From Thermoanaerobaculia bacterium (lineage in GTDB: Bacteria > Acidobacteriota > Thermoanaerobaculia > Multivoradales > Multivoraceae), in NCBI GenBank assembly GCA_963666565.1, contig OY762911.1, positions 2,880,001 to 2,944,000 of the forward strand: a stretch of DNA of 64,000 nucleotides. Direction: 5' to 3'. Position numbers and translations under genes: made by a program. The notes under the pieces are model-generated. The model did not search any database. It saw only the letters and a program-made list of their open reading frames with translations, and had not been told where the DNA came from. Below, piece after piece: positions 5,016 through 25,966 of the stretch. How positions within the stretch are numbered: the first letter of the stretch is position 1; each line of letters starts with the position of its first letter.

Positions 5016-5044
5016 TTGACAGCCTTCCGTGGATTCACTACGAT
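5016..5044 (+). promoter_or_regulatory. Sigma70-type promoter TTGACA-N17-TACGAT driving the BREX operon
   Basis: Consensus -35 at 5016-5021, 17-nt spacer, -10 at 5039-5044; in-frame GTG at 5053. Confidence 0.7.
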
Positions 5045-5052
5045 GCCCGGTC

Positions 5053-5841
5053 GTGGCCATCGAACAGCTACGCGCCGCCCCCGTGGCGGACCTTGAACGC
5101 GCCGGATTTCGCCTCGGCGCGCGCGGCACGCACACGAGCCGCACGATCATGCTGGAAGACCTGGGCGAACTCCTCGCGGCCGTTCCAACGGATAGCGACA
5201 GGAGCGTCTACGCCCACGCCGTCGTCGAAGACAACGTGCTCGGGAAGCAGACGGCGGCTACGCGGCGGCTCAGCTTTCAGCGGCTGCGCGAGCTTTACGG
5301 CCTCGACCCGCGGATACCCCTCTTCCGGGTGCTGCGGCGTCTTTGGGAGATCGACGAGGCGGGGCGGCCTCGGCTGGCCGTGCTCACGGCCATGGCGCGG
5401 GATCCTCTGCTCACGGCCACCGCGCCGGTCGTCGTGCTGTTGTCGCCGGGCGAGGAAATGATGCGTACCACGCTCCTTGAGAAGATCCGGGCAACCGTCG
5501 ACGACCGGCTCAACGACGCCGTGCTCGACAAGGTGGCGCGCAACGCCGGCAGTTCCTGGGTCCAGGCGGGCTTCCTCAGGGGCCGCGTGCGGAAGATCCG
5601 CCGCCGGGTCGCCCCGACGCCGGGAACCGTCGCTCTCGCGCTGTGGCTCGGACGGCTGGAGGGCTACGCGGTGGCCCGGCTGCTCGACTCGCCGTGGGCG
5701 CGGGTTGCCGGCGACGGCGGTCCGGGGGAGCTGCTGCCGGTCGCGCTCCGGGCGGGCCAGCTCGGCCTCGTCCGGGCACGCGCCGCGGCCGGCGTCCTCT
5801 CCATCGACGCTTCCATTCTCGACCCGGCGGTAGCGCGATGA
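5053..5841 (+). CDS. brxA: BrxA-like BREX protein
   Basis: First gene before brxB/brxC; NVLGKQT..TRR, KVARNAGSSW.QAGFL pattern of BREX-1 leader genes. Start set at GTG 5053 because the ORF-track start lies inside the promoter. Confidence 0.65.
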   Translation: MAIEQLRAAPVADLERAGFRLGARGTHTSRTIMLEDLGELLAAVPTDSDRSVYAHAVVEDNVLGKQTAATRRLSFQRLRELYGLDPRIPLFRVLRRLWEIDEAGRPRLAVLTAMARDPLLTATAPVVVLLSPGEEMMRTTLLEKIRATVDDRLNDAVLDKVARNAGSSWVQAGFLRGRVRKIRRRVAPTPGTVALALWLGRLEGYAVARLLDSPWARVAGDGGPGELLPVALRAGQLGLVRARAAAGVLSIDASILDPAVAR

Positions 5842-6404
5842 CCCTCAGCCGCATCGACAGGCTGGCCCGGGCGTACGAACGCCACATCGGCGCGCCGTGG
5901 CAACGCACCCTCGCCGGCGCCCAGCGGGTCGTCTTCGTCGTCTACGACAAGGAGATGGAACGGGCGTTGCGCGCCAGGATCGGCCAGTTCAAGCAGGCGA
6001 CGGTGGGCGCCGGTCACGGCTGGAATCTGGTCGATTGCACCTCCTGGTTCGCGGAGTGGATGGCTCGCGACGAGTACCGCGACGCCTACTTCGAGGATCC
6101 GTCCCTGCTCGAACTGAAGCTCGAAAGCGAGTTCCGCGCCCAGTCGGCCCAGAAGCTCGCCATCGCCCTGGAGCAGGCGGGTGAGACCGACGTGGTCGCC
6201 CTGCTCGGCGTCGCGTCGCTGTACGGTTTCCTGCGCGTGTCCGACCTCATCCGCGCCGTGGAGCCGGCCGTCCGGGGCCGGCTCGTCGTCTTCTTCCCCG
6301 GCAGCAGGAACGAGAACAACTTCCGGCTGCTCGACGCGCGGGACGGCTGGAACTACCTGGCCCAGGCCATCACGCTCCACGATGAACAGGTGACCTTGCC
6401 GTGA
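5838..6404 (+). CDS. brxB: BREX protein BrxB (DUF1788)
   Basis: GVASLYGFLRVS, LVVFFPG, FRLLDARDGWNYLA; ATGA overlap with brxA. Confidence 0.85.
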   Translation: MTLSRIDRLARAYERHIGAPWQRTLAGAQRVVFVVYDKEMERALRARIGQFKQATVGAGHGWNLVDCTSWFAEWMARDEYRDAYFEDPSLLELKLESEFRAQSAQKLAIALEQAGETDVVALLGVASLYGFLRVSDLIRAVEPAVRGRLVVFFPGSRNENNFRLLDARDGWNYLAQAITLHDEQVTLP

Positions 6405-9400
6405 AGATCCACGAACTCCTCGACCGCGACCCGCGCGGCGCCCGCCTCGCGAACAACGGCCAGGCCCGTCTCGACGTGGAGGGCGGCCGATCCGAGGACG
6501 TGCTGCGCGAGGAACTCTCCACGTTCGTCTGCGACGGGCGCTTCGGTGATGCGCTGCAGCGCATCCTCGACCGCTACCTCGCGAACCTGGGCGCGGCGCG
6601 GCAGGACGCGGCCTGGGTCAGCGGGTTCTTCGGCAGCGGCAAGTCGCATTTGCTCAAGATGGCCGCGCACCTGTGGCGGAACACGAGCTTCGAGGACGGC
6701 TCGACGGCCCGCGGCGTGGCCGGGGAGTCTCTCCCCGGCGACGTGCAGGCCGCGCTGCGGGAGCTGGACACCCGGGCGACGCGCGCCGGCCGCCGCCCGG
6801 TCGCCGCAGCCGGCACTCTCCTGGGCGGCAACGACTGGGTCCGCCGCACCGTGCTCGAGATCGTCCTGCGCGCCCGCGGCTGGCCGGACCAGTACGCGCA
6901 GGCGAAGTTCTGCTTCTGGCTGCGGGACGAGGGTGCGCTGGACGCGGTGCGGGCGGCGGTCGAAGCCGGGGAAAGGGACTGGCTGCGGGAACTGAACAAC
7001 CTCTACGTCAGCCCCGTCCTCGCGGGCGCGGTGGTCGACGCGGTGCCGGGCTTCGCCGCCGACGTGAAGAACGCCATGCAGGCGTTGCGGGCGCAGTTCC
7101 CGCCGACCAGGGAGGACATCACCACGGAGCAGTTCGTCGACGCCGCCCGCCGCGCGCTCTCGGACGGCGACGAGCTTCCGCACACGGTGCTCGTGCTCGA
7201 CGAGGTCCAGCAGTACATCGGCGGCGACGAGGACCGGTCGTCGGCCATCACCGAACTCGCGGAGGCGATCCAGACCCGGTTCGACAGCCGGGTGATGCTC
7301 GTTGGCGCGGGCCAGTCGGCGCTGTCGGCCGACACGCCGCATCTGGCCAAGCTCCGCGACCGGTTCGTGATCCGGGTGGAGCTGACCGACGCCGACGTCG
7401 AGGCGGTGACGCGGCGCGTGCTGCTCAGCAAGAAGCAGAGCGCCGTTCCCGAGATCGAGAAGCTCTTCGAGACCCACGCCGGCGAGGTCGCCCGTCACCT
7501 GCGGAACACGCGCATCGGCGCCCGGCCGGAGGACGCCGGCCACCGGGTGGACGACTACCCGCTGCTCCCCGTCCGCCGCCGGTTCTGGGAGGCGTGCTTC
7601 CGGGCCGTCGATGCCGGCGGCGCGCAGAGCCAGCTTCGTTCCCAGTTGCGGATCCTGCACGACTCGCTGGACGGGCTCGCGTCGCGGGACCTCGGCGCCG
7701 CGATACCCGCGTCCGACCTCTTCGGCGCCCTCGCGCCGGACATGGTGAGCACCGGCGTTCTCCTCGGTGAACTCGACACGCGGATCAGGCGGCTCGACGA
7801 CGGGACGGACCGCGGCCGCCTGCGGCGCGACCTCTGCGGGCTGGCGTTCCTGATCGGACGGCTGCCCCGCGAGACCGCGGTCGACATGGGAGTGCGGGCC
7901 ACGCCGTCCGCCCTGGCCGACCTGCTCGTGACCGACATCACGCGGGACGCGTCGGCGTTCCGGCGCGACGTGGAGAGGGAGCTCGAGTCCCTCGCAGAGC
8001 GCGGCGAACTCCTCAAGGTGGGCGAGGAGTACCGCCTCCAGACCACGGAGGGCGCCGAGTGGGACCGCGCCTACCGCGAACAGGTCGCGGCGATGCGGCA
8101 GGACGAGGTCGAGATCGGGCGCGTCCGCAACCAGCTCTTCGGCAGGGAGGTTGAGGAGGCGGTGCGGTCTCTCCGCCTCATCCACGGCGAATCGAAGTTG
8201 CGACGCACGGTCAAGCTCCACGCCGGGGAGGAAGCGCCGGTGCCCGACGCCGAGGCCGTGGTCGTCTGGTGGCGCGACGGCTGGTCGGTTCGGCGGAACG
8301 CCGTGGAGAACGAGGCGCGGCGGGCGGGAGTCGAGGGTCCGACCCTGTTCGCCTGGCTGCCGCGCCGCAACGCGGACGAACTGCGCGAGCGGATCCTCGC
8401 CGTCGAGGCGGCGGGGCGGGTGCTCGACCTGAAGGGCAGCCCCGCCTCGCCCGAGGGGCGGGACGCGAAGGCGGGAATGGAGAGCCGGCGGGACGACGCC
8501 GTCCGCCAGCGCACCGAACTCGTCCTCGACGCGCTGCGGGCAGCGGCCGTCTACCAGGGCGGGGGCACGGAGGTCTACGGCGAGGACCTGCGCCAGCGGA
8601 TCGAGCGGGGCGCCGAGGCCTCGCTGGCGAGGCTCTTCCCGGAGTTCGACAAGGGCGACCACCGGGCCTGGGAGGTGGCGCTCCGCCGCGCCCGCGACGG
8701 CAACGACGCGCCGCTCCAGATCGTCGGTTGGGAGGGGCAGACGGCGGACCATCCGGTGGCCCGCGAAGTGCTCGCGAAAGCTGCGGCCGGCGCGCGCGGC
8801 ACCGAACTGCACCGGGCGCTCCGGGCCGCGCCGTTCGGCTGGCCGCAGGACGCGGTGGACGCCGTGCTGGTGGCGCTGCACCGGAGCGGACACCTGAGGG
8901 CCGTCCGCAACGGGGTCGACGTCGCGGTCGGCGCGCTGGACCAGGCCGGCATCAAGGCGGCGGAGTTCCGGCCCGAGAGGGTCGTGCTCACCGTGAGCGA
9001 CCGGATCGCCGTGCGCGGCCTGTTCCAGCAGGTCGGCGTCCGTGCGCGGAGCGGGGAGGAGGCGCAGTCCGCCCGGAGCTTCCTCGACCGTCTGCAGGAG
9101 CTTGCGGAGTCCGCCGGCGGCGCGGCGCCGCTGCCGCCCGTGCCCGAGACCGGCTTCATCGACGAACTCTCACGGCTTGCGGGCGCGGAACAGTTGGCCG
9201 CCATCCACGAGCGGCGCGAGAGCATCGGCGAGTCGATTGCCGCCTGGACGGCGCTGGCCGAGCGGCGGGAGGGCCGCGAACGGTTGTGGCGGCTCGCGGC
9301 GGGCCTGCGGCGGCATGCCCAGGGTCTCTCGGGCACGGACTCGCCGGAGCAGGAGTTCGAAGCGATCGAGCGGCAGCGATCGCTCCTCGCGGAGACCGAC

Positions 9401-9868
9401 CGCCTCGATCCCCTCGTGGGCCGGCTCGCCGGCGCACTGCGCGAGGAATTGACTGCGCGACGCCACAAGCTCACCGTCGCGGTGACCGGTGCCGCCGAGG
9501 CGCTGGCCGCGGACGCGACCTGGCAGCGCTTGGACCAGGGCGAGCAGGAGGAGATCCTCCGGCAGTGCCAGCTTGACCCGCCTCGCGAGACCCCGATCGC
9601 GACGCGCCAGGAGCTTCTCGCCAACCTCGACAACCGCCCGCTCGCCGCATGGCAGGCCGAGGCCGATGCCGTCCGCGAGCGCGCCTCCCGGGCGTTGGGC
9701 GAAGCGGCGACCCGGCTTGGCGCCGGTTCCGAGGACGAGCCGGCGCCGACCCGCGTCACGATCCGCCCCGTTACGCTTGCCGACGAGGTGGCCGTCCGGG
9801 ACTGGCTGCGGGAGCAGGAGGAGCGGCTGGTGGAGGCGGTGCGGAAGGGGCCGGTGGTGCTGCGGTGA
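6401..9868 (+). CDS. brxC: BREX P-loop ATPase BrxC
   Basis: EELSTFV, WVSGFFGSGKSH (Walker A), LVLDEVQQYI (Walker B), DYPLLP, PFGWPQDA; 1155 aa. Confidence 0.92.
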   Translation: MKIHELLDRDPRGARLANNGQARLDVEGGRSEDVLREELSTFVCDGRFGDALQRILDRYLANLGAARQDAAWVSGFFGSGKSHLLKMAAHLWRNTSFEDGSTARGVAGESLPGDVQAALRELDTRATRAGRRPVAAAGTLLGGNDWVRRTVLEIVLRARGWPDQYAQAKFCFWLRDEGALDAVRAAVEAGERDWLRELNNLYVSPVLAGAVVDAVPGFAADVKNAMQALRAQFPPTREDITTEQFVDAARRALSDGDELPHTVLVLDEVQQYIGGDEDRSSAITELAEAIQTRFDSRVMLVGAGQSALSADTPHLAKLRDRFVIRVELTDADVEAVTRRVLLSKKQSAVPEIEKLFETHAGEVARHLRNTRIGARPEDAGHRVDDYPLLPVRRRFWEACFRAVDAGGAQSQLRSQLRILHDSLDGLASRDLGAAIPASDLFGALAPDMVSTGVLLGELDTRIRRLDDGTDRGRLRRDLCGLAFLIGRLPRETAVDMGVRATPSALADLLVTDITRDASAFRRDVERELESLAERGELLKVGEEYRLQTTEGAEWDRAYREQVAAMRQDEVEIGRVRNQLFGREVEEAVRSLRLIHGESKLRRTVKLHAGEEAPVPDAEAVVVWWRDGWSVRRNAVENEARRAGVEGPTLFAWLPRRNADELRERILAVEAAGRVLDLKGSPASPEGRDAKAGMESRRDDAVRQRTELVLDALRAAAVYQGGGTEVYGEDLRQRIERGAEASLARLFPEFDKGDHRAWEVALRRARDGNDAPLQIVGWEGQTADHPVAREVLAKAAAGARGTELHRALRAAPFGWPQDAVDAVLVALHRSGHLRAVRNGVDVAVGALDQAGIKAAEFRPERVVLTVSDRIAVRGLFQQVGVRARSGEEAQSARSFLDRLQELAESAGGAAPLPPVPETGFIDELSRLAGAEQLAAIHERRESIGESIAAWTALAERREGRERLWRLAAGLRRHAQGLSGTDSPEQEFEAIERQRSLLAETDRLDPLVGRLAGALREELTARRHKLTVAVTGAAEALAADATWQRLDQGEQEEILRQCQLDPPRETPIATRQELLANLDNRPLAAWQAEADAVRERASRALGEAATRLGAGSEDEPAPTRVTIRPVTLADEVAVRDWLREQEERLVEAVRKGPVVLR

Positions 9869-11157
9869 GCATGTCGATAACCACAGAACAACTCGCGTCA
9901 CGCATTCGGGCTGCAAGGGAGGCAACCGGCTTGACACAGGAGGCGGTGGCTGGCGCGCTGAAGCTCTCGCGCCCCGCCGTGTCGCAGATGGAGGCCGGGA
10001 ACCGGGCCGTGTCGGGCCTCGAACTCGAGCGCCTCGGGCGCCTTTTCGGGAGGCGCATGACCGACTTCTTCGACGATGCGTTCTCTCCCGAACGAGGCGC
10101 GGCCATCGCGCTCTTCCGCGCGCATCCGATTCTGAGCAGCGACTCCGACCTACGGGACGCGGTGGGGCTGGCACTGGAGTTCGGGCGTTCCGTGGCCCAC
10201 CTTGAGGACCGGCTCCAGATCGACAGGCGCGAGGTGGTGGCGTACGGCTATGGGACCGCCGCCATGAAGAACAAGTGGGATGCCATCCAGCAGGGAGAGC
10301 GCGTGGCCGGCGCGGAGCGGAACAGGCTGGGGCTGGGCATCGAGCCGCTGCCCGATCTCGTGGATCTGTTGGAGAGGCAGGGCGTGCGCGCCGTGGCGGC
10401 GTCGATGCCTGCCAAAGTGTCCGGCCTGACCCTGGTGGACGATGCGGCGGGCATCGTCGTCGCGGTCAATGGACGGCACGGGTTCAACCGGCAGCGCTTC
10501 TCGCTGGCCCGGGAGTACGCCCATGTCCTGTTCGACCGCGACAGGCAGGCCTGCCTGAGCCGCAGGGAGGACCAGGAATCGTCGATGGAGGTGCGGGCCG
10601 ACTCCTTCGCCGCCACTTTCTTGCTTCCGGCCGACGGTGTTCGTCGCTATGTCCACTACCTCGCCAAGGGGCGCGCGAGCCGGACTCGCCGCCAAGTCTC
10701 GGACGGCCGGGACGTTCAAACCGCGGAGCGCCGACGGCCTCCCGGCAGCCAGGGGCTGCGTCTGCACGACGTGGCAATGCTCGCTCATCACTTCGGCGTC
10801 AGCCGCGTGGCGGCGCTCTACCGCCTGAACGGCCTGGGGATCCTCACCGAACGGCAGCGGGCCGCTTTGGCCGAGTGGAACGTCGGCCACGGCGAACGCC
10901 TCGCGAGCCTGCTTGGTCTTCGGAACCCCGACGCCGCCCGCCGTCGCTTGCCTCGCAAGCGTCTCGTGACCCTCGGAATCGAGGCCCTGGAGCGGGAGAT
11001 CATCTCCTACAGCAAGCTCCGCGAGTTGGCCGGACTAGTGGGCGTGAGCGAGGACGATCTGGAGGAACTCGTGGTGGCCGCAGGAATCGACCCGAGACCG
11101 CCGGTTGATGTGTCGCCGGTGGACTGGGACGTTCTGAGAAGAGGATCGGTGAGGTAG
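9865..11157 (+). CDS. XRE-family HTH fused to ImmA/IrrE-like (peptidase M78) domain; HExxH degenerate (REYAH)
   Basis: RIRAAREATGLTQEAVA..SRPAVSQMEAGNR HTH; RQRFSLAREYAHVL; EVRADSFAATFLLP; HHFGVSR. GTGA overlap with the brxC stop; alternative ATG at 9871. Confidence 0.85.
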   Translation: MSMSITTEQLASRIRAAREATGLTQEAVAGALKLSRPAVSQMEAGNRAVSGLELERLGRLFGRRMTDFFDDAFSPERGAAIALFRAHPILSSDSDLRDAVGLALEFGRSVAHLEDRLQIDRREVVAYGYGTAAMKNKWDAIQQGERVAGAERNRLGLGIEPLPDLVDLLERQGVRAVAASMPAKVSGLTLVDDAAGIVVAVNGRHGFNRQRFSLAREYAHVLFDRDRQACLSRREDQESSMEVRADSFAATFLLPADGVRRYVHYLAKGRASRTRRQVSDGRDVQTAERRRPPGSQGLRLHDVAMLAHHFGVSRVAALYRLNGLGILTERQRAALAEWNVGHGERLASLLGLRNPDAARRRLPRKRLVTLGIEALEREIISYSKLRELAGLVGVSEDDLEELVVAAGIDPRPPVDVSPVDWDVLRRGSVR

Positions 11158-13790
11158 TGGCGAGTCGAGCCGAGGCTCACGACGGGGCGCTGGATGCACT
11201 AAGTCATCCGGTGGTCCTTCGCGGAGCTTGGCTTCGCGTAGACGGCTGGTATCGCAGCGGCAACTTGGCGCCTCAACCCGAACTCTCCCTCTGGCGCCTT
11301 CACCCGGAACGCGAGATGCGCCGGCTAGCGCGCGATCTGCGAAGGGAGAGATGGACGCCGAGCGATTGGCTCCAGGTTCCGTACCCGAAGCGGGGCGCTT
11401 GCTTGCGCCACTACACGATGCCCTCCGTACGCGACCAAGTTGCGTTCATGGCGTTTCTGGTGCTGCTGGGCCCTCTGTTGGATCGCCAGTTTGAGAACTT
11501 CGTATTCGGGAACAGGTGGTATCGGCCGATTCGATGGGAGCGACGGACCGGCCGGGGTCACTGGGTGCAGGGCCCTTACCCGTTGCTGACGGACAAGGCC
11601 TATCTGCCTTACGCCCGCTCGCATGGCCTCTATCGTCGCGTAGCACACTGGACAGTTGCGCGAATGACGAACGCGCGGATACGCGACCACGACTACGGAG
11701 GGCCACTTCAGCTCCCCGACGACTACGTGCGGACATCGCTTCCTGAGTGGACCAGGGAGGAGTGGTGGGCTACTGAAGACCGCGGCGCCCGTTGTGCCTA
11801 CTGGGCAGCTCTGGACCTCCAGCTCGCGTATCCCTCGATTCGTCTCAGTCGACTGCGCGAGAGCATCCGTCAGATGGCCGGCCAAGCTCCGGTCTTCGAG
11901 TTGAGTGGCTTCCCCGAGGCCGTTCTCGACATCATGGCTCGTCCTGGGACTCCCGAGCTTCTTGGCGACCACCTTGCCGACGCGCTCGACGCAGTGACCG
12001 TGTTGTCTGGAGAGATCCCGGAGACTGCTTGGCGTCCCTGCTGCGCGGCTCCGGACCTGCCTCCCGACAACCGCGGCCTTCCCACAGGGCTCGCGATATC
12101 GGGACTTCTGATGAACGTCCTCCTGCACGCCGGCGACAGCGAACTCTTGACGAGCCTAGAGGCCCGGGAAGGTCGGGACCGTAGCGCCTTCCTCAGATTC
12201 GCGGACGACATGTACGTTCTGTCGCGATCCGCCAACGGCCTAGTCGACCTCATTGACGACGTCTGGAGGGCCTTGGTGGGCGAGGACTCCGTCGCCCTCG
12301 CGAGCGGGGTCTCGCCGTCGAACCTCTACCTCAATCTCGGCAAGGTAGCGCCCGAGGAGTTGTCGAAGTTGGTCAACGCCTATCTCAAGGCACAGGGTTG
12401 GAAGTGCTGCGGTAGCTGCCGTCGCCTGAGGCCCCAAGGATCTGCAACCGAAACGGAAGTCCCCACGTTGGGCGACTGGTTCCGTTCGGAGGGAGGCGAT
12501 GGAAGTTCATGGGGCGTGGATCTCCAACGGACGGCAGTGGGTCCCAACGAAGTGGGTCCGTTCTTGACGACATTGGTTTCCCGGCTGAGCGAGCTCGGTA
12601 CGGATACTCTGGCGGAGCGCTTTGGCGAGGGAGCCAGGCATCGGCTCGGCCGACTTCACGAACTGGCCCGATTCGACATCGACGACAAGCAGGTTCGCCC
12701 CGAAACTCGTCGCGCGTTTGCGGCCAATCGGCTAGTCAGGACCTGGCTTTCGCCCGACGGGGCCAAGGCGCGCGCCACCTTGGCGGACATTCGGGAGTCG
12801 ATTGCCTACGTGCTGCGAGTGACGCCTTGGAAATTCTCGCTCTGGAGGTCCGTGGTGAGGGCGGCTGCAATGCGTCCGCCTGAGCGGTCCGAAGAAGACG
12901 AGCGGCTGGCTCGGGATTGGCTTGTCGGCCGGCTCCGGCATATCGCCCACGTTCAAGGCGGTCAGGATTCGCGCTCCTGGATGAACGCTTGGCCGGAGGA
13001 TCTGGAGGATGAGGATCGGAGTGACCGAGACGCGCTTTGGAAGGCGCTGTACCTGTCCTTCCACAGGGCGGCTTTCTGGCATGCGATGGGCGACGTACTG
13101 AGGGAGCTCTGGCGTCACGATGATCGAGTCAAGCAACCACCGGTGGGCGACGCCGGGCCGTCGCCGAGTTGGTGGACGGTACGGGCTCTCCCTGGCGGAG
13201 GGCACGCTGTCGTCGCTGCTTGGCTAGGAGCGCTAGACGAGTGGACGGGCGTGCTCTACCCGTCCGAGGACGTCACGGATCGTCTGAGACGATGGCCTTG
13301 GGAGCTTGACGAACTCGTTGCCGCTGTTCTCGCTTCCAGTGCCCGACCGGAGGTTGCGGAGGGCCTGCGCCGTGCAGAGCGGCCCGGCGGGTCGCTCGCG
13401 GCACCTGTTGCGCTTATCAGCGGCAGGTGGCGGCGAACTGCCGAGCTTCTTGAGAAGGCTGAGCGCGTCCTGCCGCCACATGCGAAGGAAAGGGCCCTGA
13501 ACGAGAGCGCACTCGCACATCTCTACTTGGCGGGTCGCCGAAAGGGCTTGGCACCCGTCCTGTTTCCGGCGGGCCAGCCGCCGCGAATTCTGGGGGCTCC
13601 CCGAGACACTGACCATGCGATCGCCGTCGGAATGGCTCTTGGGTGTGGCGCGAGCATCGGCCTGGACCTGCTGCGGCAAGCGCTTCTTGATCCCGCGGTG
13701 GCGGCTCGAAAGGCCTCGCGTGATCCGCACGCCCTCCGGGAGTACGGACGCGCACGGCGTCTTTACCTGGGCCACGAGGTGCAGGCGTAA
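11157..13790 (+). CDS. Reverse transcriptase of the UG/Abi (defence-associated RT) type with long helical C-terminal region
   Basis: VPYPKR..LRHYTMPSVRDQVA, FGNRW, ALDLQLAYPSI, GLPTGLAISGLLMN, catalytic FLRFADDM, NLGK. No maturase or endonuclease domain seen. Confidence 0.9.
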   Translation: MASRAEAHDGALDALSHPVVLRGAWLRVDGWYRSGNLAPQPELSLWRLHPEREMRRLARDLRRERWTPSDWLQVPYPKRGACLRHYTMPSVRDQVAFMAFLVLLGPLLDRQFENFVFGNRWYRPIRWERRTGRGHWVQGPYPLLTDKAYLPYARSHGLYRRVAHWTVARMTNARIRDHDYGGPLQLPDDYVRTSLPEWTREEWWATEDRGARCAYWAALDLQLAYPSIRLSRLRESIRQMAGQAPVFELSGFPEAVLDIMARPGTPELLGDHLADALDAVTVLSGEIPETAWRPCCAAPDLPPDNRGLPTGLAISGLLMNVLLHAGDSELLTSLEAREGRDRSAFLRFADDMYVLSRSANGLVDLIDDVWRALVGEDSVALASGVSPSNLYLNLGKVAPEELSKLVNAYLKAQGWKCCGSCRRLRPQGSATETEVPTLGDWFRSEGGDGSSWGVDLQRTAVGPNEVGPFLTTLVSRLSELGTDTLAERFGEGARHRLGRLHELARFDIDDKQVRPETRRAFAANRLVRTWLSPDGAKARATLADIRESIAYVLRVTPWKFSLWRSVVRAAAMRPPERSEEDERLARDWLVGRLRHIAHVQGGQDSRSWMNAWPEDLEDEDRSDRDALWKALYLSFHRAAFWHAMGDVLRELWRHDDRVKQPPVGDAGPSPSWWTVRALPGGGHAVVAAWLGALDEWTGVLYPSEDVTDRLRRWPWELDELVAAVLASSARPEVAEGLRRAERPGGSLAAPVALISGRWRRTAELLEKAERVLPPHAKERALNESALAHLYLAGRRKGLAPVLFPAGQPPRILGAPRDTDHAIAVGMALGCGASIGLDLLRQALLDPAVAARKASRDPHALREYGRARRLYLGHEVQA

Positions 13791-13793
13791 CAG

Positions 13794-15596
13794 ATGTTGC
13801 CGACGCTCCATCGACTGCTTTGGGGTCCCACTCGGGAGAAGCGTCTCGCGGAATGGGCGCCCCGGCCATGGGAGGTGCCCGCGGTTGGTCTGCCTGTCCG
13901 CGTAGCGGTCTTTCTCTACTCATCGGTAGCGCGGTCCCCGTGTCCTTCTGAGTGGACGCCGGAAGCGGGACCGCTGACGTGGTCGCTTGGCGGTGAGCTG
14001 GAGGTCCTTGGCGCAGGCAGGCTCGCCCAGTTCGAGATGAACCCGGCAGCTTCGCCAAGCGGTAGCGCATCCCCCGGTCGAGGTCCCGTTCTCAGGCGCA
14101 CCACCGCTTGGGAAGTTCCGCCGCATGAGGCGTACTTTCTTCCTCTTGCGGCTGCGGCCGAAGTGGCGGCGATCAAGGCCGAGGACTATGCACTCTACTG
14201 CGACGTTCTCCTGCTGATTACCGCGCTCGACGGTGGTGAAGCGATTCTCTCGGGATTGGCCGAGCGAGGAGTCGGTGCCGTTCCATTCGTGGACCGATGG
14301 GCTTGGCGGTCCCGAATCCACCTTCCTGAGGCGGCGTGGGCGGCGATGGACGCAATTCTCCGCTGGTCTACGAGGCCTGACCGTGAGTTCGGTCCGGGAC
14401 GAGAGGAGTTTGCTCACGCTCTTGAGGCTTGCTGCCCGAAGACGATCACGAACGACGACTTCAAGCGCGAGCGCATCGACATCGGCTTGGCGGACGCGCG
14501 CTCCACCGAAGTTCCCCGCACGGTGCGGCCACCAGGGCTGGTGGACGGCAAACTGCCGGAGGAACTTGAAGTGAACGAGGCGGAGCTCGCCGACTCGCTC
14601 CTGCTTCGCGTCGGCCAAACGTTTGAGCCGAAGCGGTCGTTCAACTCGATGCTCTCCTCCTTTCCCCGCATGGAGCTAGAGGCAGGCAACGCCGTCCTTG
14701 AACAGATCGCCAGTGCGTTCCAGGCGCCACATCACCCGAGCCCGGAGCAGACCCCCGGTCTCGTCGTGTTTCCCGAACTGGCCGTGCCGCAACCCGAGGC
14801 CCGCACGGTTCGCGACCTGGTCCGCGAGACTGGCATCGCTTCGCTGAGCGGCCTCTACTGGCGGCAACTCAAGCCTGCGTATCCGGCACGGGGCTTGACC
14901 CGCGCATCCAGGAGTTGGTTCGTCAATGAGGCCGAGCTCACGCTCCCCGTGGGCCACAAAGAGCCCGGGCCTACCAGTGTTCGTTGGTACCGGGTTCGCA
15001 AGCCGGTGCCGGCCCATATCGAGGCCGGCTTGGCATCGGCGCTTGGTTCCCGGTGCTGTGGACAAGACGAGCTGAAACCCGGCGAGGAGACTTGCTGGGC
15101 CATGCTCAAGGGGCGGAGGTGGTACAGGTTCCTCCATCCCGATTGGGGCGACTTCTCGGTCGCGATCTGCGCAGACCTGCTCGATGCCGCGCCTTGGCGC
15201 TCCTTGCGAGGCGAGATCATGCATCTCTTCATGGTCGCCTTCAATCAGGATCTCGACCTGTTCGACGCGCTGACGCGGACAAGGTCGTACGAGAACTTCG
15301 CGAACGTCGTGACCGTGAATGACGGCCGCTACGGCGGCAGCGTGCTGTGGACGCCCAAGCGGGGCCACCGTCGGGAGGCGGGGCGCGTTCGAGGCGGCGG
15401 TCTCTCAGTTACGGCCGACGTGCGATTGCCCGTGAAGGAGCTCTTTCGCCGACAGAGGTTCGGAGTCGCCGAGGCGGAGCGCCGTGCGGAAGTGCAGTGG
15501 CAGGGCAAGAAGGAAGATCCTGAGAAGTTCAAGGCGCCGCCTCCCGGATTCAGGCGGCGCGCTTCGAATCAGTGCCCGAAGTTCAAGGAGGTTTGA
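13794..15596 (+). CDS. Protein with C-terminal nitrilase/carbon-nitrogen hydrolase domain (RT partner)
   Basis: Glu-Lys-Cys triad pattern: VVFPELAVP, NEAEL..RVRKPVPAHIE, VAICADLLD; then AFNQD and VTVNDGRYGGS. Confidence 0.82.
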   Translation: MLPTLHRLLWGPTREKRLAEWAPRPWEVPAVGLPVRVAVFLYSSVARSPCPSEWTPEAGPLTWSLGGELEVLGAGRLAQFEMNPAASPSGSASPGRGPVLRRTTAWEVPPHEAYFLPLAAAAEVAAIKAEDYALYCDVLLLITALDGGEAILSGLAERGVGAVPFVDRWAWRSRIHLPEAAWAAMDAILRWSTRPDREFGPGREEFAHALEACCPKTITNDDFKRERIDIGLADARSTEVPRTVRPPGLVDGKLPEELEVNEAELADSLLLRVGQTFEPKRSFNSMLSSFPRMELEAGNAVLEQIASAFQAPHHPSPEQTPGLVVFPELAVPQPEARTVRDLVRETGIASLSGLYWRQLKPAYPARGLTRASRSWFVNEAELTLPVGHKEPGPTSVRWYRVRKPVPAHIEAGLASALGSRCCGQDELKPGEETCWAMLKGRRWYRFLHPDWGDFSVAICADLLDAAPWRSLRGEIMHLFMVAFNQDLDLFDALTRTRSYENFANVVTVNDGRYGGSVLWTPKRGHRREAGRVRGGGLSVTADVRLPVKELFRRQRFGVAEAERRAEVQWQGKKEDPEKFKAPPPGFRRRASNQCPKFKEV

Positions 15597-15599
15597 CCG

Positions 15600-16781
15600 A
15601 TGGCGACGATCCACACCCTACAGCTCGATGGTTTCTTGTCCTTCCCGCCGGGTTCGTCGGCGTTCGAGCTTCAGCCTCTGAACGTACTGATCGGACCGAA
15701 CGGCGCCGGCAAGTCGAACTTCATCGAGGCGTTCGAGCTTCTCGCGGCTGCGCCGGTGGACTTTGCCGCGGCAGTACGGAGTGGGGGCGGCGCGAAGGAA
15801 TGGCCGTGGAAGGGAGTGGGCGCTAGGTCCACCGCCCGCATCGAGACCGTGCTGGCTGATGGAACCCCGACTGGTCGGCCGCTTCGCCATGGCATCGAGT
15901 TCGGCTCGGTCGCCCGCCGGGCGGAGGTCCTCGACGAGGTGGTGGAGGAGACGAGGCCCTACGCGGGGAACGAGGACGTTTTCTTCTACTATCGGTTCCA
16001 ACAAGGCGAGCCAGCGATCAGCGTTCGCGAGGAAGGCGGCAAAGCGGTCCAGCGGAGCCTGAAGAGAGAGAACCTGCCTCCCGATCAGTCGGTCCTCGCT
16101 CGCTACAAGAGCGTCGACCTCTGCCCGGAAGTTGCGTGGGTCTCGGAGCGCTTCAAGGCGATTCGGACATTCCGTGAGTGGACGTTCGGCCGCTTCGCGT
16201 CGCTTCGGGAGCCGCAACGCTCCGACCTGCCGGACGACAGCCTGCTGCCGAACAACTTGAATCTCGCGCTTGTTCTGAACTACATCGGACACTCCGGCGC
16301 GACGCAACTGGAGCACGAGATGCGGCAGTTTCTCCCGCGGTTCGCACGCCTGTCCACGCGAGTCGCCGGCGGATCCGTGCAGTTCTACGTTCACGAGAAC
16401 GGATTGACCGCACCCATTCCGGCAAGCCGTCTCTCGGACGGCACGATGCGGTTCATGGCCATCCTTGTCACCTTGCTTCATCCCGACCCGCCTCCCCTTG
16501 TTTGCATCGAGGAGCCAGAGCTTGGGCTGCACCCGGACGCGGTTGTCGGGCTGGGGGACCTCCTCGTCGAGGCATCCTCGCGGATGCAGCTGGTCGTGAC
16601 GACGCACTCCGACGCTCTGGTTGCTGCTCTCTCCAACCGAGCAGACTCGGTCGTCACGTGCCAGTGGAAGGGCGGGGGAAGCGCCTTGGAGCGAGTTGAT
16701 CCGGAGCGGCTTCGCAGGTGGCTCCACGAATACACCTTGGGCGACATCTGGCGGATGGGCAAGCTGGGTGCGAACCCGTGA
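15600..16781 (+). CDS. ABC-type (AAA_21-like) ATPase
   Basis: LNVLIGPNGAGKSN, LSDGTMR signature, VCIEEPELGLHP, VTTHSD. Confidence 0.9.
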   Translation: MATIHTLQLDGFLSFPPGSSAFELQPLNVLIGPNGAGKSNFIEAFELLAAAPVDFAAAVRSGGGAKEWPWKGVGARSTARIETVLADGTPTGRPLRHGIEFGSVARRAEVLDEVVEETRPYAGNEDVFFYYRFQQGEPAISVREEGGKAVQRSLKRENLPPDQSVLARYKSVDLCPEVAWVSERFKAIRTFREWTFGRFASLREPQRSDLPDDSLLPNNLNLALVLNYIGHSGATQLEHEMRQFLPRFARLSTRVAGGSVQFYVHENGLTAPIPASRLSDGTMRFMAILVTLLHPDPPPLVCIEEPELGLHPDAVVGLGDLLVEASSRMQLVVTTHSDALVAALSNRADSVVTCQWKGGGSALERVDPERLRRWLHEYTLGDIWRMGKLGANP

Positions 16782-17395
16782 CCGACATCGAGGTCTACAT
16801 GGAAGGCGGAGGCCGCACCGCCAGTTCGAGGGCGCTGCTCCGTGAAGGGGCGGAGGAGTTTCTTGGGGAACTTCGATCCGCTGCGCGAAGCCGGGGCCTC
16901 GAACTGAGGATCGTCTGCTGCGGCGGGCGAGGCGAGGCACGAGCCGACTTCGTCGAGGCAAGGAGCGAGGGGCGGTTCGCGGCGCTCCTGCTAGTGGACT
17001 CGGAGAAGCCGGTCGAGGGCGATCCCAGAACCCACCTCGTCACTCACGACGGCTGGGGGGATCTGGAACCGGCGTCCGAGAGCGAGATTCACCTAATGGT
17101 GCAGGTGATGGAGACCTGGCTCGTCGCCGATCCTCAGGCGCTCGCGAGGCACTATGGACCTGCCTTTCGCACGGACCTTCTGCCGGCGGACCAGGACTTG
17201 GAGACGGTAGAGAAGGAGACGGTGCTCGCGACCCTCGAAGAGGCTACTGCACCGACGTCGGAGGGCCGCTACCACAAGATCCACCATGCCAGACGGCTCC
17301 TCGGCCTGATCGACTCGGAGAGGGTCCAAGCGCGCTGCCCGCATTGCAAGCGGCTCTTCGAGATGCTGACGGCCTTGATCGAGGAGGCGGCCTGA
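16778..17395 (+). CDS. DUF4276-like (TOPRIM-related) partner of the ATPase
   Basis: IEVYMEGGG, CGGR, LLVDSE, MVQVMETWLVAD, YHKIHH; GTGA overlap with the ATPase stop. Confidence 0.75.
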   Translation: MTDIEVYMEGGGRTASSRALLREGAEEFLGELRSAARSRGLELRIVCCGGRGEARADFVEARSEGRFAALLLVDSEKPVEGDPRTHLVTHDGWGDLEPASESEIHLMVQVMETWLVADPQALARHYGPAFRTDLLPADQDLETVEKETVLATLEEATAPTSEGRYHKIHHARRLLGLIDSERVQARCPHCKRLFEMLTALIEEAA

Positions 17396-17396
17396 G

Positions 17397-20300
17397 ATGA
17401 CCGGAGCCCTAACGCCCGACCTCCGCAAGCAGTTGGAGAAGGCCGTCCGCTCCGCGCGCGCCGAAGGCGAGGCCGGCACTCGCGCTGCGCTGCGGGCGCT
17501 CGCGGTGGACGGCGCCCGGCCGCACGAGTCGATGTCCGCCGACGAGCGCAAGCTGCGGCGGCGGCTTCGCGCCCACGGCCGGCAGTTGGGCGACGTACGG
17601 GACCGGGAGAGCGGAGCGCAGGAGATCGGGCGGCTCGTCCACGAGGTCGCCTACGAGCACTGGCACCGGATGCTGTTCGCTCGGTTCCTGGCGGAGAACG
17701 GGTTGCTGGTCGAGCCCCGGTCCCGGGTTTCGGTATCGCTGGACGAGTGCGCTGAACTGGCGCGCGAAGCGGGCGCCACGGACGGCTGGCAGGTCGCCGA
17801 GAGGTTCGCTGCCGAGATGTTGCCCCGGATCTTCCGGCCAGACGACCCGGCCCTCGCGGTGACGCTGGCGCCGGAGACGCGGCAGAGGTTGGAGCGGCTG
17901 GTGGAAGATCTGCCAGACAGCGTGTTCACGGCGAGCGACGCGCTTGGCTGGACGTACCAGTTCTGGCAGGCGGACCGGAAGGAGGAGGTAAACCAGTCGG
18001 GCGCGAAGATCGGCGCGGACGAACTTCCCGCGGTGACGCAGTTGTTCACCGAGAACTACATGGTCCAGTTTCTGTTCCACAACACCATCGGCGCGTGGCG
18101 GGCCGGCAAGCACCTGGAGCAGCGGCCCGAACTGGCCGAGCGTGCCGCGAGCGAAGGGGAACTCGGGGCCGCCGTGCACATCGAACCGCGAGGCGGCCTC
18201 GACGGCTACGACTTCGACTACCTGCGGTTCGTCCGCGAACCGGCCGGCGACGACGGCGAGGATGTGGCCCGGACCTCGACTGGACCTTGGCGGCCAGCCG
18301 GCGGTGCCTTCCGCCGCTGGCCCGACCGGGCGGCGGACCTTCGGGTGCTGGACCCATGCTGCGGAAGCGGCCACTTCCTCATCGAGGGCTTGGAACTCCT
18401 GGTGCGGCTGCGCATGGAGGAGGAGGGCCTCGGGGTCGAGCACGCCGTCGGGGCCGTGTTGAGGGACAACCTGTTCGGACTGGAGATCGACCAGCGCTGC
18501 ACGCAGATCGCGGCTTTCAATCTTGCACTGGCCGCGTGGAAGATGGTGGGCCGCCCGATCGACTTGCCGCCGCCACGGATTGCCTGCTCCGGTCTCGCCG
18601 TGAGCGCTTCGAAGGACGACTGGGTGAGGCTTGCCGAGGGCGATCAACGTCTGGAAGGCACGCTCGACCGGCTCCACGACCTCTTCAAGCAGGGGCCCAT
18701 TCTCGGTTCGTTGATCGACCCGGCGGGGGTCGGCGAGGAACTGTTCCAGGCCGACTTCGCGACGGCGGAGCGCGCTCTGAGCCGGGCGGTCGCCCAGGAA
18801 GACGCCGGCGAGGAAGAGCGGGAGCGCGCGGTGGCGGCGCAGGGGATGTCGCGCGCCGCCGGACTGCTGGCCGGCGAGTACGACCTCGTGATCACCAACG
18901 TGCCCTATCTGGCGCGTCGCAAGCAAGCCGCGAGCCTGCAGGACTTCGCGCTCAAGAGTCACCCGGACGCTAAGGCCGACTTGGCGACCATTTTCGTGTC
19001 GAGGATTCTCCGGTGGCTCGGGACCGGCGGCGTTCAGGCGGTCGTCGCGCCGCAGAACTGGCTGTTTTTGACCAGCTATAGGAAGCTGCGCGAGCGGCTG
19101 CTCGCCGAACGGACGTGGCGATTCGTGGCGCGGCTGGGACCCGGCGCGTTCGAGACGATAGGCGGGCACGTCGTGAACGTCGCCATGGCCGTGCTGTCGG
19201 CCAAGAGGCCGGACGAAAACTGGCGCATGGCCGGCATCGACGTGTCGGCACCCCGCGGCGAGAAGCCGATTCCGGCGCGGAAGAAGGCGGAGTTGCTGCG
19301 GACTCGTGGGAGAAAGCCGGTCTCACAACTTCCGCAGGCTCGGCAGCGACGCAATCCAGATGCCGTGGTCAGGCTACTCGACTACGGAGAAGCGGTTCAG
19401 GTTCTTCTATCTGAGCATGCTCAGGGTCTTGCCGGCATACTGAACGGCGATTCTCTCCGTTTTCGTCGCATGGTGTGGGAGTTCCATCCCGTTCCGCCGG
19501 AGTGGGTCTTGCAGCAGACAAGCGTCGACGAACCGAGCTTCTTTGGCGGACATTCAGGAGTCATCTACTTCGATGAGGAGAACGGCCATCTCCGCGAGGA
19601 TGCTCTCGTTCGACGGGAGAGGCTTCACGACTCGGACCGCCGTGGCAACGCGGCATGGGGTCGGAACGGAATCGGCATCAGCCAGATGACGACGTTGCCT
19701 GCGACGCTGTACTCGGGGGCCAAGTTCGACTCCAACGTGGCGGTCATTCTCCCTAGAGAGGGGGCACTCGTTGAGTCAATCTGGTGCTACTGCTCCGCTC
19801 CCGAGTACGCGCGGGCCGTGCGGGAGATCGACCAAAAGCTGAATGTAACCAACGCCACGTTGGTGAAGGTTCCATTCGATCGAGGTCACTGGAGGAAGGT
19901 CGCCGCCGCCCGGTACCCCAACGGCCTCCCCGAGCCGTTCTCCGACGACCCGACTCAATGGCTTTTCCACGGCCACCCGTGCGGCTCGGTGGTCTGGGAC
20001 GAGGAGACGAAGTGGACCGCCCACGGTCCGCTCCGTGCAGACGCTTCCGTGCTCCACGTCGCCGTCGCGCGGCTCCTCGGCTACCGCTGGCCAGCGGAGC
20101 TCGACCCGGACATGCGGCTGGCGGCAGAGTCCCGAGAATGGGTCGAGCGGTGCCGGGAACTGCACCACTTCGCCGACGAGGACGGCATCGTCTGCCTTCG
20201 GGCAGCGGCTGGCGAGCTGCCGGCGGCCGACCGGCTGCGCTCCCTGCTCGCGGCCTCCTACGGCGAGGCGTGGTCCGACGGGAAGGAGGGCCAGCTTCTT

Positions 20301-21035
20301 GGTGCGGCCGGAAACGGCAAACGGCCGCCCAGGTCTCTGGACGAGTGGCTCCGCGACCGGTTCTTCGCCGAGCACTGCAGGCTGTTCCACAACCGGCCCT
20401 TCGTCTGGCACGTCTGGGACGGCCTCAAGAACGGCTTCCACGCGTTGGTGAACTGCCATCGCCTGTGCGGGCCGGATGGCGAAGGCCGGCGAACGCTGGA
20501 AGCGCTCGCGTACCGGCATCTGGGCGAGTGGATAGCTCGTCAGCGCGCGGCGCAGGGTCAGGATCGGGAGGGGGCGGACGCCCGGCTCGCCGCCGCCCTG
20601 GACCTTCAGCGGCAGTTGGAACTCATCCTGAAGGGTGAACCGCCTTACGACCTCTTCATCCGCTGGCGCCCGCTCCACGAGCAGCCGGTCGGCTGGGCGC
20701 CGAACCTCGACGACGGCGTGAGGCTCAACATCCGCCCCTTCATGCGGGCGGAACTCCAGTCCGGCGGCCGCAAGGGCGCCGGCATCCTCCGCGTCAGGCC
20801 GAACATCACCTGGAAGAAGGACCGCGGCAAGGAACCAGGGAGCCTTCGCCCTAGGGATGACTTCCCCTGGTTCTACTCCTCCGTTGGCCAAGGTACCGAG
20901 GTAGACCGCACGGACTACGCGGCGTCGCTGGAGGCGGATTTTGATGGCAACCGCTGGAACGACCTTCACTACTCACGGGCCGTCAAGGAGGCTGCCCGGA
21001 CGCGTGGACGGAGCGAGACGAGGGCGTCGGCGTGA
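17397..21035 (+). CDS. pglX: BREX DNA adenine methyltransferase PglX (BrxX)
   Basis: PAVTQLFTE.YMV, VLDPCCGSGHF (SAM motif), LFGLEID, VITNVPY (NPPY-like), HNRPFVWH, PNLDDGVRLNIRP. Confidence 0.92.
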   Translation: MTGALTPDLRKQLEKAVRSARAEGEAGTRAALRALAVDGARPHESMSADERKLRRRLRAHGRQLGDVRDRESGAQEIGRLVHEVAYEHWHRMLFARFLAENGLLVEPRSRVSVSLDECAELAREAGATDGWQVAERFAAEMLPRIFRPDDPALAVTLAPETRQRLERLVEDLPDSVFTASDALGWTYQFWQADRKEEVNQSGAKIGADELPAVTQLFTENYMVQFLFHNTIGAWRAGKHLEQRPELAERAASEGELGAAVHIEPRGGLDGYDFDYLRFVREPAGDDGEDVARTSTGPWRPAGGAFRRWPDRAADLRVLDPCCGSGHFLIEGLELLVRLRMEEEGLGVEHAVGAVLRDNLFGLEIDQRCTQIAAFNLALAAWKMVGRPIDLPPPRIACSGLAVSASKDDWVRLAEGDQRLEGTLDRLHDLFKQGPILGSLIDPAGVGEELFQADFATAERALSRAVAQEDAGEEERERAVAAQGMSRAAGLLAGEYDLVITNVPYLARRKQAASLQDFALKSHPDAKADLATIFVSRILRWLGTGGVQAVVAPQNWLFLTSYRKLRERLLAERTWRFVARLGPGAFETIGGHVVNVAMAVLSAKRPDENWRMAGIDVSAPRGEKPIPARKKAELLRTRGRKPVSQLPQARQRRNPDAVVRLLDYGEAVQVLLSEHAQGLAGILNGDSLRFRRMVWEFHPVPPEWVLQQTSVDEPSFFGGHSGVIYFDEENGHLREDALVRRERLHDSDRRGNAAWGRNGIGISQMTTLPATLYSGAKFDSNVAVILPREGALVESIWCYCSAPEYARAVREIDQKLNVTNATLVKVPFDRGHWRKVAAARYPNGLPEPFSDDPTQWLFHGHPCGSVVWDEETKWTAHGPLRADASVLHVAVARLLGYRWPAELDPDMRLAAESREWVERCRELHHFADEDGIVCLRAAAGELPAADRLRSLLAASYGEAWSDGKEGQLLGAAGNGKRPPRSLDEWLRDRFFAEHCRLFHNRPFVWHVWDGLKNGFHALVNCHRLCGPDGEGRRTLEALAYRHLGEWIARQRAAQGQDREGADARLAAALDLQRQLELILKGEPPYDLFIRWRPLHEQPVGWAPNLDDGVRLNIRPFMRAELQSGGRKGAGILRVRPNITWKKDRGKEPGSLRPRDDFPWFYSSVGQGTEVDRTDYAASLEADFDGNRWNDLHYSRAVKEAARTRGRSETRASA

Positions 21036-25690: not shown

Positions 25691-25966
25691 CCGGCTGGCT
25701 CTGTGCTCCGGGCGAGGACAGGGCTCCGTTCCCCGACTGCCATGGCTCTGCACCCCGGTGGACATGAACCCAAGAGTGCCCGTCCCTTGCGGGAACCACG
25801 TGAATTGTGGTGGGATCCGCTCGTCCGACCGTTCTAGAGCCGGACGGCCGAGCGAGACCCGGCTCGCGGCCTGGAACTGAGCCTCTCGCTGGAACGAACA
25901 TCCTCGCCCAACCAACGAGACCAGTCGCGCTTCACGAGGCCGCGAGTTTGTAACTCCGGGGGAACG

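Follow-up and report, generated by a model that had tools for sequence, protein, structure and literature searches.

The window discussed here is a stretch of 64,000 nucleotides from a Thermoanaerobaculia bacterium (GenBank assembly GCA_963666565.1, contig OY762911.1, positions 2,880,001 to 2,944,000). On its forward strand it holds a gene for a reverse transcriptase (RT) and, directly downstream, a second open reading frame (ORF), ORF2, with a nitrilase domain. The two share one reading frame and are separated by a single TAA stop codon. With a probability of about 0.7, the pair is a two-subunit RT-nitrilase defence system of class 3 of the UG/Abi reverse transcriptases, whose split is inherited and which a type-1-like BREX locus carries as cargo, in the interval from brxC to pglX.

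An earlier note on this sequence had offered three accounts of the stop codon: a natural two-gene system, readthrough, or a nonsense lesion. The first agrees with the relatives, in which the split is common. The note had missed the repeated switching between fused and split forms, the N-terminal domain of ORF2, and the location within BREX.

The junction

The RT gene starts with GTG and encodes 877 amino acids; ORF2 (13794-15596) encodes 600. Their junction consists of a Shine-Dalgarno-like GAGGTG (13776-13781), the stop codon TAA (13788-13790), one CAG codon (13791-13793) and the ATG of ORF2 (13794-13796). Twelve nucleotides separate the end of GAGGTG from this ATG. Translation across the stop would give a hypothetical product of 877+1+1+600 = 1479 amino acids. 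The earlier note had read these features from the letters, and the sequence and its ORFs bear them out.

The stop codon of the upstream gene (TAG, 11155-11157) overlaps the start codon of the RT gene (GTG, 11157-11159). There is therefore zero intergenic space 5' of the RT, and the locus has no room there for a non-coding RNA, as had been pointed out before. The next gene starts 3 nucleotides after the end of ORF2. RT residues 10-53 are kept in relatives, including an invariant R27 and W46, which argues that the GTG at 11157 is the true start. The recorded RT gene call, P0003 (824 amino acids), skips window positions 11157-11315 and begins 53 codons late.

Split and fused forms in relatives

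A protein search gave 229 matches, 120 of which are listed. The set compared is the window plus 119 of those listed, at 44-76% identity. Among these 120 rows, 63 proteins have 840-930 amino acids, 45 have at least 1390, and 12 are of other lengths and were left unclassified. Fused homologues of 1455-1492 amino acids are found among the listed matches at 44-51% identity.

The short forms terminate a few residues past a conserved motif, L.EY.RARR.LLG, except for P0056, which stops earlier. The motif is C-terminal in split relatives. In fused ones it stands directly before a variable linker of about 8-18 residues that leads into the sequence PTLHRLLWG. The RT of the window ends within 1-2 residues of its relatives' ends.

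The DNA of the junction was read at 28 genome loci that hold both halves and at 4 metagenome loci. The genome loci comprise 13 split, 14 fused and 1 degraded pair (L012); two metagenome loci are split and two fused. At all 15 of these other split junctions ORF2 lies in the -1 frame. These junctions are of the classic kind seen in coupled genes, and several types occur: TAATG, TAGTG, TGATG, ATGA (at least 4), GTG starts that overlap the stop, TAGccATG and TAAccATG. Homologues aligned across the junction, a comparison that the earlier note had proposed, thus share the split at one linker and do not share its register.

The closest relatives whose junctions were read are L001-L003, at 65-70% identity. 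In these the start codon of ORF2 aligns with the ATG of the window. ORF2 begins M-E-P-T-L-H-R-L-L-W-G in L001 and L003, and M-L-P-T-L-H-R-L-L-W-G in the window. The junction of the window equals the TAATG and TGATG overlaps of these nearest relatives plus one base, and it is one substitution away from a fusion. This comparison extends to 70% identity at most; the best listed relative (P0004, 76%) is a partial protein.

By chance, one third of split junctions would be expected to be in frame. Among the 16 split junctions read as DNA one is, and that is the window itself. The in-frame stop looks incidental and its register chance-like, because the junction has one base more than those of the nearest relatives and in-frame junctions are no commoner than expected.

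Two trees bear on how often the form has changed. In a FastTree of the RT part of the 120 rows, at least 9 changes between fused and split forms are needed, 8 of them forced by supported branches, against a mean of 34.6 when the states are shuffled. The window falls in a clade of 17 rows without a fused member. An IQ-TREE 'quick' tree of 29 rows verified as DNA requires a minimum of 3 changes and places the window in an all-split clade of 5 with 100% support. Loci L012, L025, L026 and L028 were excluded from this second set as degraded, interrupted or near-duplicate. The fused protein P0052, which is nested among split forms, has kept a Met at the start position of its split sisters. This is the trace expected from a re-fusion.

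These observations indicate that the split is inherited and is not a lesion, and that the linker has repeatedly been broken and restored, with switches between fused and split forms.

A nonsense mutation

Alternatively, a new TAA may recently have cut a fused gene that is now heading to decay or to loss of its nitrilase. A single in-frame stop and the existence of fused homologues are what such an event would leave, and decayed copies occur in the same slot: the degraded pair L012/G024 has 11 stops, and nitrilase 3' remnants are found in genomes G004 and G020. However, the supported clade of the window is entirely split, and the junctions of its nearest relatives are out of frame and overlapping, with a start codon that aligns with the window's own. 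Moreover, the RT ends where its relatives end, every invariant residue is kept in both ORFs, and a Shine-Dalgarno-like site precedes the ATG. The nonsense lesion considered in the earlier note is therefore highly improbable.

The decay of L012 / G024:C2 (L046, L049) can be described further. This same-genus pair lies in the same BREX slot as that of the window, and its RT match holds 7 TGA, 3 TAG and 1 TAA.

Readthrough

Programmed readthrough would yield the RT, ORF2 and the 1479-residue fusion in a fixed proportion. CAG alone separates the stop from the in-frame ATG, and the read-through sequence would align with the fused homologues. The base that follows the stop is C, a weaker termination context in E. 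coli. Against this, the stop is TAA, and the one in-frame junction among 16 in the close family is that of the window, so that a conserved in-frame stop is not found. A fused product is not required, since ORF2 is out of frame at each of the other 15 split junctions. An Rfam scan of 9000-18000 at E 1 or better gave just one chance miRNA-type match (E 0.71) and revealed neither a known RNA family nor a known recoding element. No slippery heptamers for -1 frameshifting were seen at ATGA-type junctions, which were inspected by eye and without a formal scan. Readthrough, also raised in the earlier note, thus has a very slim chance of being the explanation.

A set of 15 distant relatives (24-38% identity) comprises 9 fused forms, 2 with a split in the -1 frame, 1 with a split at another place, 1 (L042) interrupted by one in-frame TGA, and 2 that are incomplete or rearranged. 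L042 comes from a distant member of the Bacillota (about 32% identity). Its TGA (9839-9841) lies at the equivalent boundary, with the next in-frame start about 27 codons on. It is a further in-frame stop at the boundary, which readthrough could claim in its favour; it could be a lesion, an error or a recoding site.

An assembly error

The real gene might be fused and the stop an error, given that the genome is an assembly and single-base errors occur. Positions 13300-14300 are nevertheless identical in the contigs of three sequencing runs, with word depths of 26, 53 and 7.6. These runs are three samples of one study, and the window's own source is possibly among them. In run X5, from another study, the junction lies outside the coverage. 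The split state also agrees with the whole clade. In the family at large the breaks are confined to one 30-nucleotide linker, each with a well-formed start codon, and so they are not random assembly frameshifts. An error is hardly credible.

Other observations on the relatives

Two fused homologues (L025:7001-10845 and L026:7001-11132) carry about 1.3-1.9 kb of extra DNA within the RT match, and in L026 the opposite flank of the pair carries a DDE transposase gene. Both may be interrupted genes. No relatives were found in viral contigs.

The RT tree is discordant with taxonomy. Among L001-L030, Acidobacteriota, Pseudomonadota, Gemmatimonadota, Myxococcota and Spirochaetota are interleaved. Because the tree departs from taxonomy in this way, frequent horizontal transfer of the RT-nitrilase module is suggested.

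The reverse transcriptase

The RT consists of a core up to about residue 540 and a helical C-terminal region (residues 540-877), as seen in a model of a homologue. Its best PADLOC match is RT_UG6 (6.7e-21), with residues 306-539 matched to model positions 171-357 of 925. In eight relatives the RT_UG6 match covers model positions of about 4-425, at 57-93 bits. A full-length match to this profile was found neither in the window RT nor in these eight. The Pfam model RVT_1 matches at 2.3e-5, under the family cut-off, and the PADLOC Drt1a score is 2.6e-4, which falls short of membership in the DRT1 profile. Searched against the PDB, a profile of 54 relatives matches RTs of the retron and group II intron types (3e-8), with which the fingers and palm align. 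The RT is of the UG/Abi lineage, as its best PADLOC models are UG-group RTs.

The catalytic box reads FADD, as the earlier note had stated, and it is conserved across the family. F348, A349 and D350 are invariant in the 54 relatives and D351 is conserved in at least 90%. In addition to this box, 90 other RT columns are invariant.

The two domains of ORF2

The nitrilase occupies the C-terminal part of ORF2. PADLOC matches it to RTasNitrilase (5.3e-35, residues 276-588) and RT_UG5-nitrilase (2.2e-26), and to Drt1a at 1.6e-11 over 80 residues only. In a PDB profile search with ORF2, the sole solved structure is DRT1 9yfd (1.5e-8, about 90 residues), and C459 of ORF2 is aligned to C1116 of DRT1. 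That ORF2 has a nitrilase fold is borne out by VIA-align, at moderate model confidence: residues 265-569 align with 1fo6_A (Z 10.3, root-mean-square deviation (rmsd) 4.1, 206 residues aligned) and with many other superfamily members. Foldseek gives weak nitrilase-superfamily rows for the ORF2 model, the best at E 6.3e-3.

E328, K403, E410 and C459 are invariant in 27 relatives. The Glu-Lys-Cys triad, which the earlier note had judged intact, is accordingly present as E328, K403 and C459. Because catalytic and other invariant residues are kept, both ORFs look functional.

The first 221 residues of ORF2 resemble the C-lobe of protein kinases. VIA-align matches them to Gcn2 (9f58_A: Z 9.7, rmsd 3.5, 149 aligned) and Pim-1 (5tur_A: Z 9.4, rmsd 3.7, 159 aligned). 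No sequence-family match was found for these residues. Further evidence is provided by a fused homologue, L006 (alignment A3), of which 600 residues around the junction were folded, with a predicted local distance difference test (pLDDT) score of 82.7 and a predicted template modelling (pTM) score of 0.80. In this model kinase C-lobes align from about residue 327-330, the equivalent of the ORF2 start (4a7c_A: Z 8.5, rmsd 3.7, 157 aligned), and no kinase-like fold was found upstream of that point. The kinase-like fold thus begins exactly at the junction of the fused homologue, and the break therefore corresponds to a domain boundary.

Predicted binding of the two chains

Co-folding, which the earlier note had suggested, supports binding. 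RT residues 540-877 with ORF2 scored 0.81, 0.81 and 0.80 in three runs, and the best of 3 controls scored 0.00. Of 80 solved complexes 58 score as high, as do 2 of 110 mismatched pairs; custom alignments were supplied to the co-fold, so these counts are only roughly valid here. The three runs share at least 92% of their contacts, with a partner pLDDT of at least 81. The contacts of lowest error join RT residues 860-874 with ORF2 residues 24-26, 104-124 and 355-374. The sole related solved complex is the distant, single-chain DRT1. The models support binding of the RT tail to ORF2, and the fused homologues likewise argue for it.

A proposed mechanism

In the two-subunit system proposed here, the proteins would be separated at a domain boundary, within the poorly conserved linker of about 8-18 residues between L.EY.RARR.LLG and PTLHRLLWG. 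The TAA-CAG-ATG of the window would be one more variant of this junction and would still mark two genes. ORF2 would be translated from its own ATG, by way of GAGGTG, by re-initiation after the TAA, or both. The tail of the RT would then dock on ORF2 and rebuild the arrangement of the fused protein, as fused homologues and co-folding suggest.

By analogy with DRT1 and DRT5S/L, the RT may make protein-primed DNA without an RNA template. This DNA product may control the assembly state and the activity of the nitrilase effector, which in turn may cause abortive infection when a phage is sensed.

Points against this reading

Several observations weigh against the two-subunit reading or parts of it. 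The three agreeing assemblies come from a single study that may include the source of the window. For 13300-14300 no RNA runs are listed. L042, with its single in-frame stop, leaves some room for a recurrent in-frame state. The direction of change, whether fission or re-fusion, is deduced, because the trees are unrooted.

The structural evidence is of middling strength. The kinase-like fold has Z values of 8-10, moderately above background on the scale of the tool. The AlphaFold model of ORF2 is mediocre (pLDDT 66.9, pTM 0.75), and residues 459-538 fall below 50. Foldseek finds nothing for it at E 1e-3 or better, and Pfam, including its nitrilase model, gives no match to ORF2 at E 0.01 or better.

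Finally, the mechanism is drawn wholly by analogy with the distant DRT1 and DRT5. The RT profile matches the DRT1 structure 9yfd at E 0.0039 only, and the priming Ser402 of DRT1 is described as not conserved in other class 3 RTs (PMC13275509).

Comparison with known systems

Separately encoded nitrilases have been published for UG5-small and UG6 (PMC9226505, PMC13436386), and the split as such is therefore not new. The earlier note had named DRT1-type systems as fusions of RT and nitrilase. This is true, but it is incomplete in view of these separate nitrilases.

The class 3 features are present in the pair: an RT with a C-N hydrolase, large size, and an extension that lies between the RT and the C-terminal domains. 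The sequences place the family as a UG6-like variant of class 3 UG/Abi. It is called UG6-like and not plain UG6 because it lacks both the full-length profile match and the primase neighbour.

UG6. The RT core is nearest to PADLOC RT_UG6, and in both cases the nitrilase has a gene of its own downstream of the RT (PMC9226505). UG6 is compared here by its description, and differences are apparent. The kinase-like domain reported for UG6, which is without catalytic residues, is C-terminal on the RT (PMC9226505), whereas the C-lobe-like fold found here lies on the nitrilase polypeptide. Here only the RT core matches the profile. UG6 is associated with a DnaG-type primase, cluster 192 of Mestre et al. 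(PMC9226505), whereas no such neighbour was found among 86 flanking ORFs. Nor is the separate nitrilase fixed in the present family, in which 45 of the 108 classified relatives among the listed matches are fused. Mestre et al. called the prediction of a defence role for UG6-like systems inconclusive (PMC9226505). Their supplementary UG6 lists, which stand outside this comparison, may already hold members of the family.

UG5. UG5-small and UG5-large (DRT5S/L; DRT11) likewise have a fused form and a form with separate ORFs, and their nitrilases belong to the same UG-associated radiation (PMC9226505, PMC13436386). ORF2 matches PADLOC RT_UG5-nitrilase. The RT, in contrast, is not nearest to UG5. 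The proteins have 877 and 600 residues here as against 1005 for DRT11 as described, and an extra domain of about 220 residues precedes the nitrilase here.

DRT1. DRT1 (UG1; 9yfd; PMC13275509) also combines an RT with a nitrilase effector, and its catalytic Cys, C1116, is the one aligned with C459. DRT1 is one polypeptide, whereas the pair of the window is encoded by two ORFs, and the similarity is weak (ORF2 1.5e-8, RT 0.0039). Mutation of C1116 abolishes defence, which is abortive and requires both active sites, according to PMC13275509. That source also describes DRT1, DRT5S and DRT5L as making protein-primed DNA without a template, and the DRT1 adducts as driving tetramer and filament assembly, which both enable and restrain the nitrilase. 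DRT1 and the UG5 system DRT11 are described as protecting on their own (PMC13275509, PMC13436386).

BREX-embedded genes. Like defence genes that lie within BREX or Hma loci, for instance the Hma-embedded candidates of PADLOC such as HEC-01, the RT-nitrilase pair occupies a variable slot of a BREX operon, here beside an HEC-01 pair.

The BREX locus of the window

The pair lies in an operon with the gene order brxA, brxB, brxC, HTH-M78, RT, ORF2, HEC-01A, HEC-01B, pglX, pglZ, which contains the BREX type 1 core (brxA, brxB, brxC, pglX and pglZ). The features are collected in Table 1.

Table 1. Features of the RT-nitrilase pair and of the surrounding BREX locus, in window coordinates.
Feature	Position	Strand	Evidence
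brxA	5029-5841	+	PADLOC BrxA 1.5e-79
brxB	5643-6404 (ORF)	+	PADLOC BrxB 2.8e-69, match from ORF residue 69
brxC	6401-9868	+	PADLOC BrxC E=0, full length
HTH-M78 gene: XRE-type helix-turn-helix and M78 (ImmA/IrrE-like) peptidase	9871-11157	+	HTH_3 1e-9; Peptidase_M78 2.3e-12
Reverse transcriptase, 877 aa	11157-13790	+	RT core to about residue 540, then helical C-terminal region
FADD catalytic box, RT residues 348-351	12198-12209	+	Aligned with YADD of retron-type RT
Conserved RT tail, residues 860-874, L.EY.RARR.LLG; predicted ORF2 dock	13734-13778	+	Alignment of relatives
Junction: SD-like GAGGTG, TAA, CAG, ATG	13776-13796	+	Sequence, with 15 further split junctions for comparison
ORF2 N-terminal domain, residues 1-221, protein-kinase C-lobe-like; opens with PTLHRLLWG	13794-14456	+	VIA-align
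Nitrilase (C-N hydrolase) domain, ORF2 residues 265-569	14586-15500	+	PADLOC, VIA-align, PDB profile
Nitrilase residues E328; K403; E410; C459	14775-77; 15000-02; 15021-23; 15168-70	+	Invariant columns
HEC-01A, AAA_21 ATPase	15600-16781	+	PADLOC 1.8e-140
HEC-01B, DUF4276	16718-17395 (ORF)	+	PADLOC 1.9e-60
pglX	17397-21035	+	PADLOC PglX E=0
pglZ	21258-23618	+	PADLOC PglZ 2.4e-247

The HTH-M78 gene begins (ATG 9871) 2 nucleotides past the stop of brxC. Its PADLOC matches are RmrA (2.6e-26) and capP (7.5e-14), and it is likely a regulator. It occurs without the RT in G004 and G020 and is absent in L003, so the gene is not obligately linked to the RT pair. HEC-01A and HEC-01B form a candidate defence pair of their own within this slot.

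After pglZ, in the place expected of brxL, lies an ORF of 736 amino acids (23557-25767) for which no Pfam or PADLOC match was found. Downstream of BREX is an AbiJ-type gene (25967-26923; Pfam AbiJ_NTD3 2.6e-54, Abi_C 1.9e-23).

Cargo or accessory

The pair lies within BREX in the window and at 9 of the 28 other genome loci. In L001, L002, L003 and L012 it occupies the same slot between brxC and pglX; HTH-M78 is found in three of these, and HEC-01 is present, absent or fragmentary. For the other 24 loci, 133 flanking ORFs were extracted, of which 86 were scanned with Pfam and 36 with PADLOC. In L005, L006 (fused), L009 and L027 the pair stands between pglXI and pglZ, in a second BREX architecture, and L007 has pglZ downstream. 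Seven further loci adjoin other defence genes: SIR2-HerA, HmaC, a type IIG enzyme, PDC-S06, NsnB, Ppl and E1-E2/JAB. At 12 loci no defence match was found among the flanking ORFs scanned. A Pfam scan (E 1e-6 or better) of 86 of these 133 ORFs gave no Toprim, DnaG or CHC2 zinc-finger family, nor was any found among the neighbours in the window.

Two of these loci have further genes around the pair. Between HTH-M78 and the RT, L002 holds two genes (L002:5942-6807), one for a ThsB-type TIR protein (Pfam 2.8e-18) and one for a membrane protein of the 8xMP family (5.7e-30). L005 has an ORF of 321 amino acids between the nitrilase gene and pglZ (L005:11449-12414), with a PADLOC match to RT_III-A (9.8e-15) that covers the C-terminal part of the model only.

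Within the same genus, a pglX homologue is found in 15 of 41 other genomes. Upstream of it, HEC-01A/B stand alone in 8 genomes, brxC is directly adjacent in 2 loci, and G012 and G061 have a nitrilase gene. G004 and G020 (L096, L097) have the HTH-M78 gene, about 3 kb of ORFs without family matches, and a nitrilase 3' remnant of about 105 amino acids; one ORF in this interval is weakly PDC-S70-like. The RT is present in 2 of 36 same-genus genomes drawn, intact in one and with 11 stops in the other. As the slot holds varied cargo or none across the genus, the interval between brxC and pglX (9871-17395 in the window) is a hotspot in which cargo turns over. Each of the RT pair, the HTH-M78 gene and HEC-01 can be separated from the others as a module. 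BrxU/GmrSD is an example of BREX cargo. In the literature searched, no account of an RT-nitrilase pair as BREX cargo was found.

The pair might instead be a working accessory of BREX, for instance a second, abortive line of defence coupled to components of BREX or to the regulator HTH-M78. Its embedding in BREX at these loci, in two architectures (brxC|pglX and pglXI|pglZ) and several phyla, is consistent with this, and its start overlaps or abuts the upstream BREX-side gene, as it also does in L006, L009 and L027 by tblastn coordinates. However, 19 of the 28 loci lie outside BREX, and 7 of these are beside unrelated defence genes, as is typical of defence islands. The slot in the same genus has other cargo or none, which fits a generic hotspot, and DRT1 and DRT11 are described as defending alone (PMC13275509, PMC13436386). 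A role as accessory is possible but unlikely.

A more far-reaching proposal is that the family is an unnamed group of class 3 UG/Abi. If true, such a group would have an RT core like that of UG6 but lack a primase, and would place a pseudokinase-like domain before the nitrilase. Its subunit boundary would be an evolutionary switch, at which single-base changes in the one linker let lineages alternate between one gene and two, with the window one substitution from a fusion. The pair would then serve BREX specifically instead of being random island cargo, and its activity would depend on BREX or on HTH-M78. This is doubtful, and the two-subunit system carried as BREX cargo is preferred.

Implications

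What is noteworthy in this family is the repeated switching between fused and split forms at one linker, together with the recurrent embedding in BREX, and not the stop codon. For annotation, an in-frame stop between the domains of a defence gene should not be called a pseudogene before relatives have been checked.

Recurrence within BREX and near other defence genes provides context evidence for a defence role of UG6-like systems.

Split and fused forms are natural experiments that show where the domains meet and point to the RT tail as the docking element. The DRT1 paper leaves the substrate of the nitrilase and its control by DNA synthesis open (PMC13275509). The two-chain form lets RT and nitrilase be purified, mutated and titrated separately, and it could help to answer both questions.

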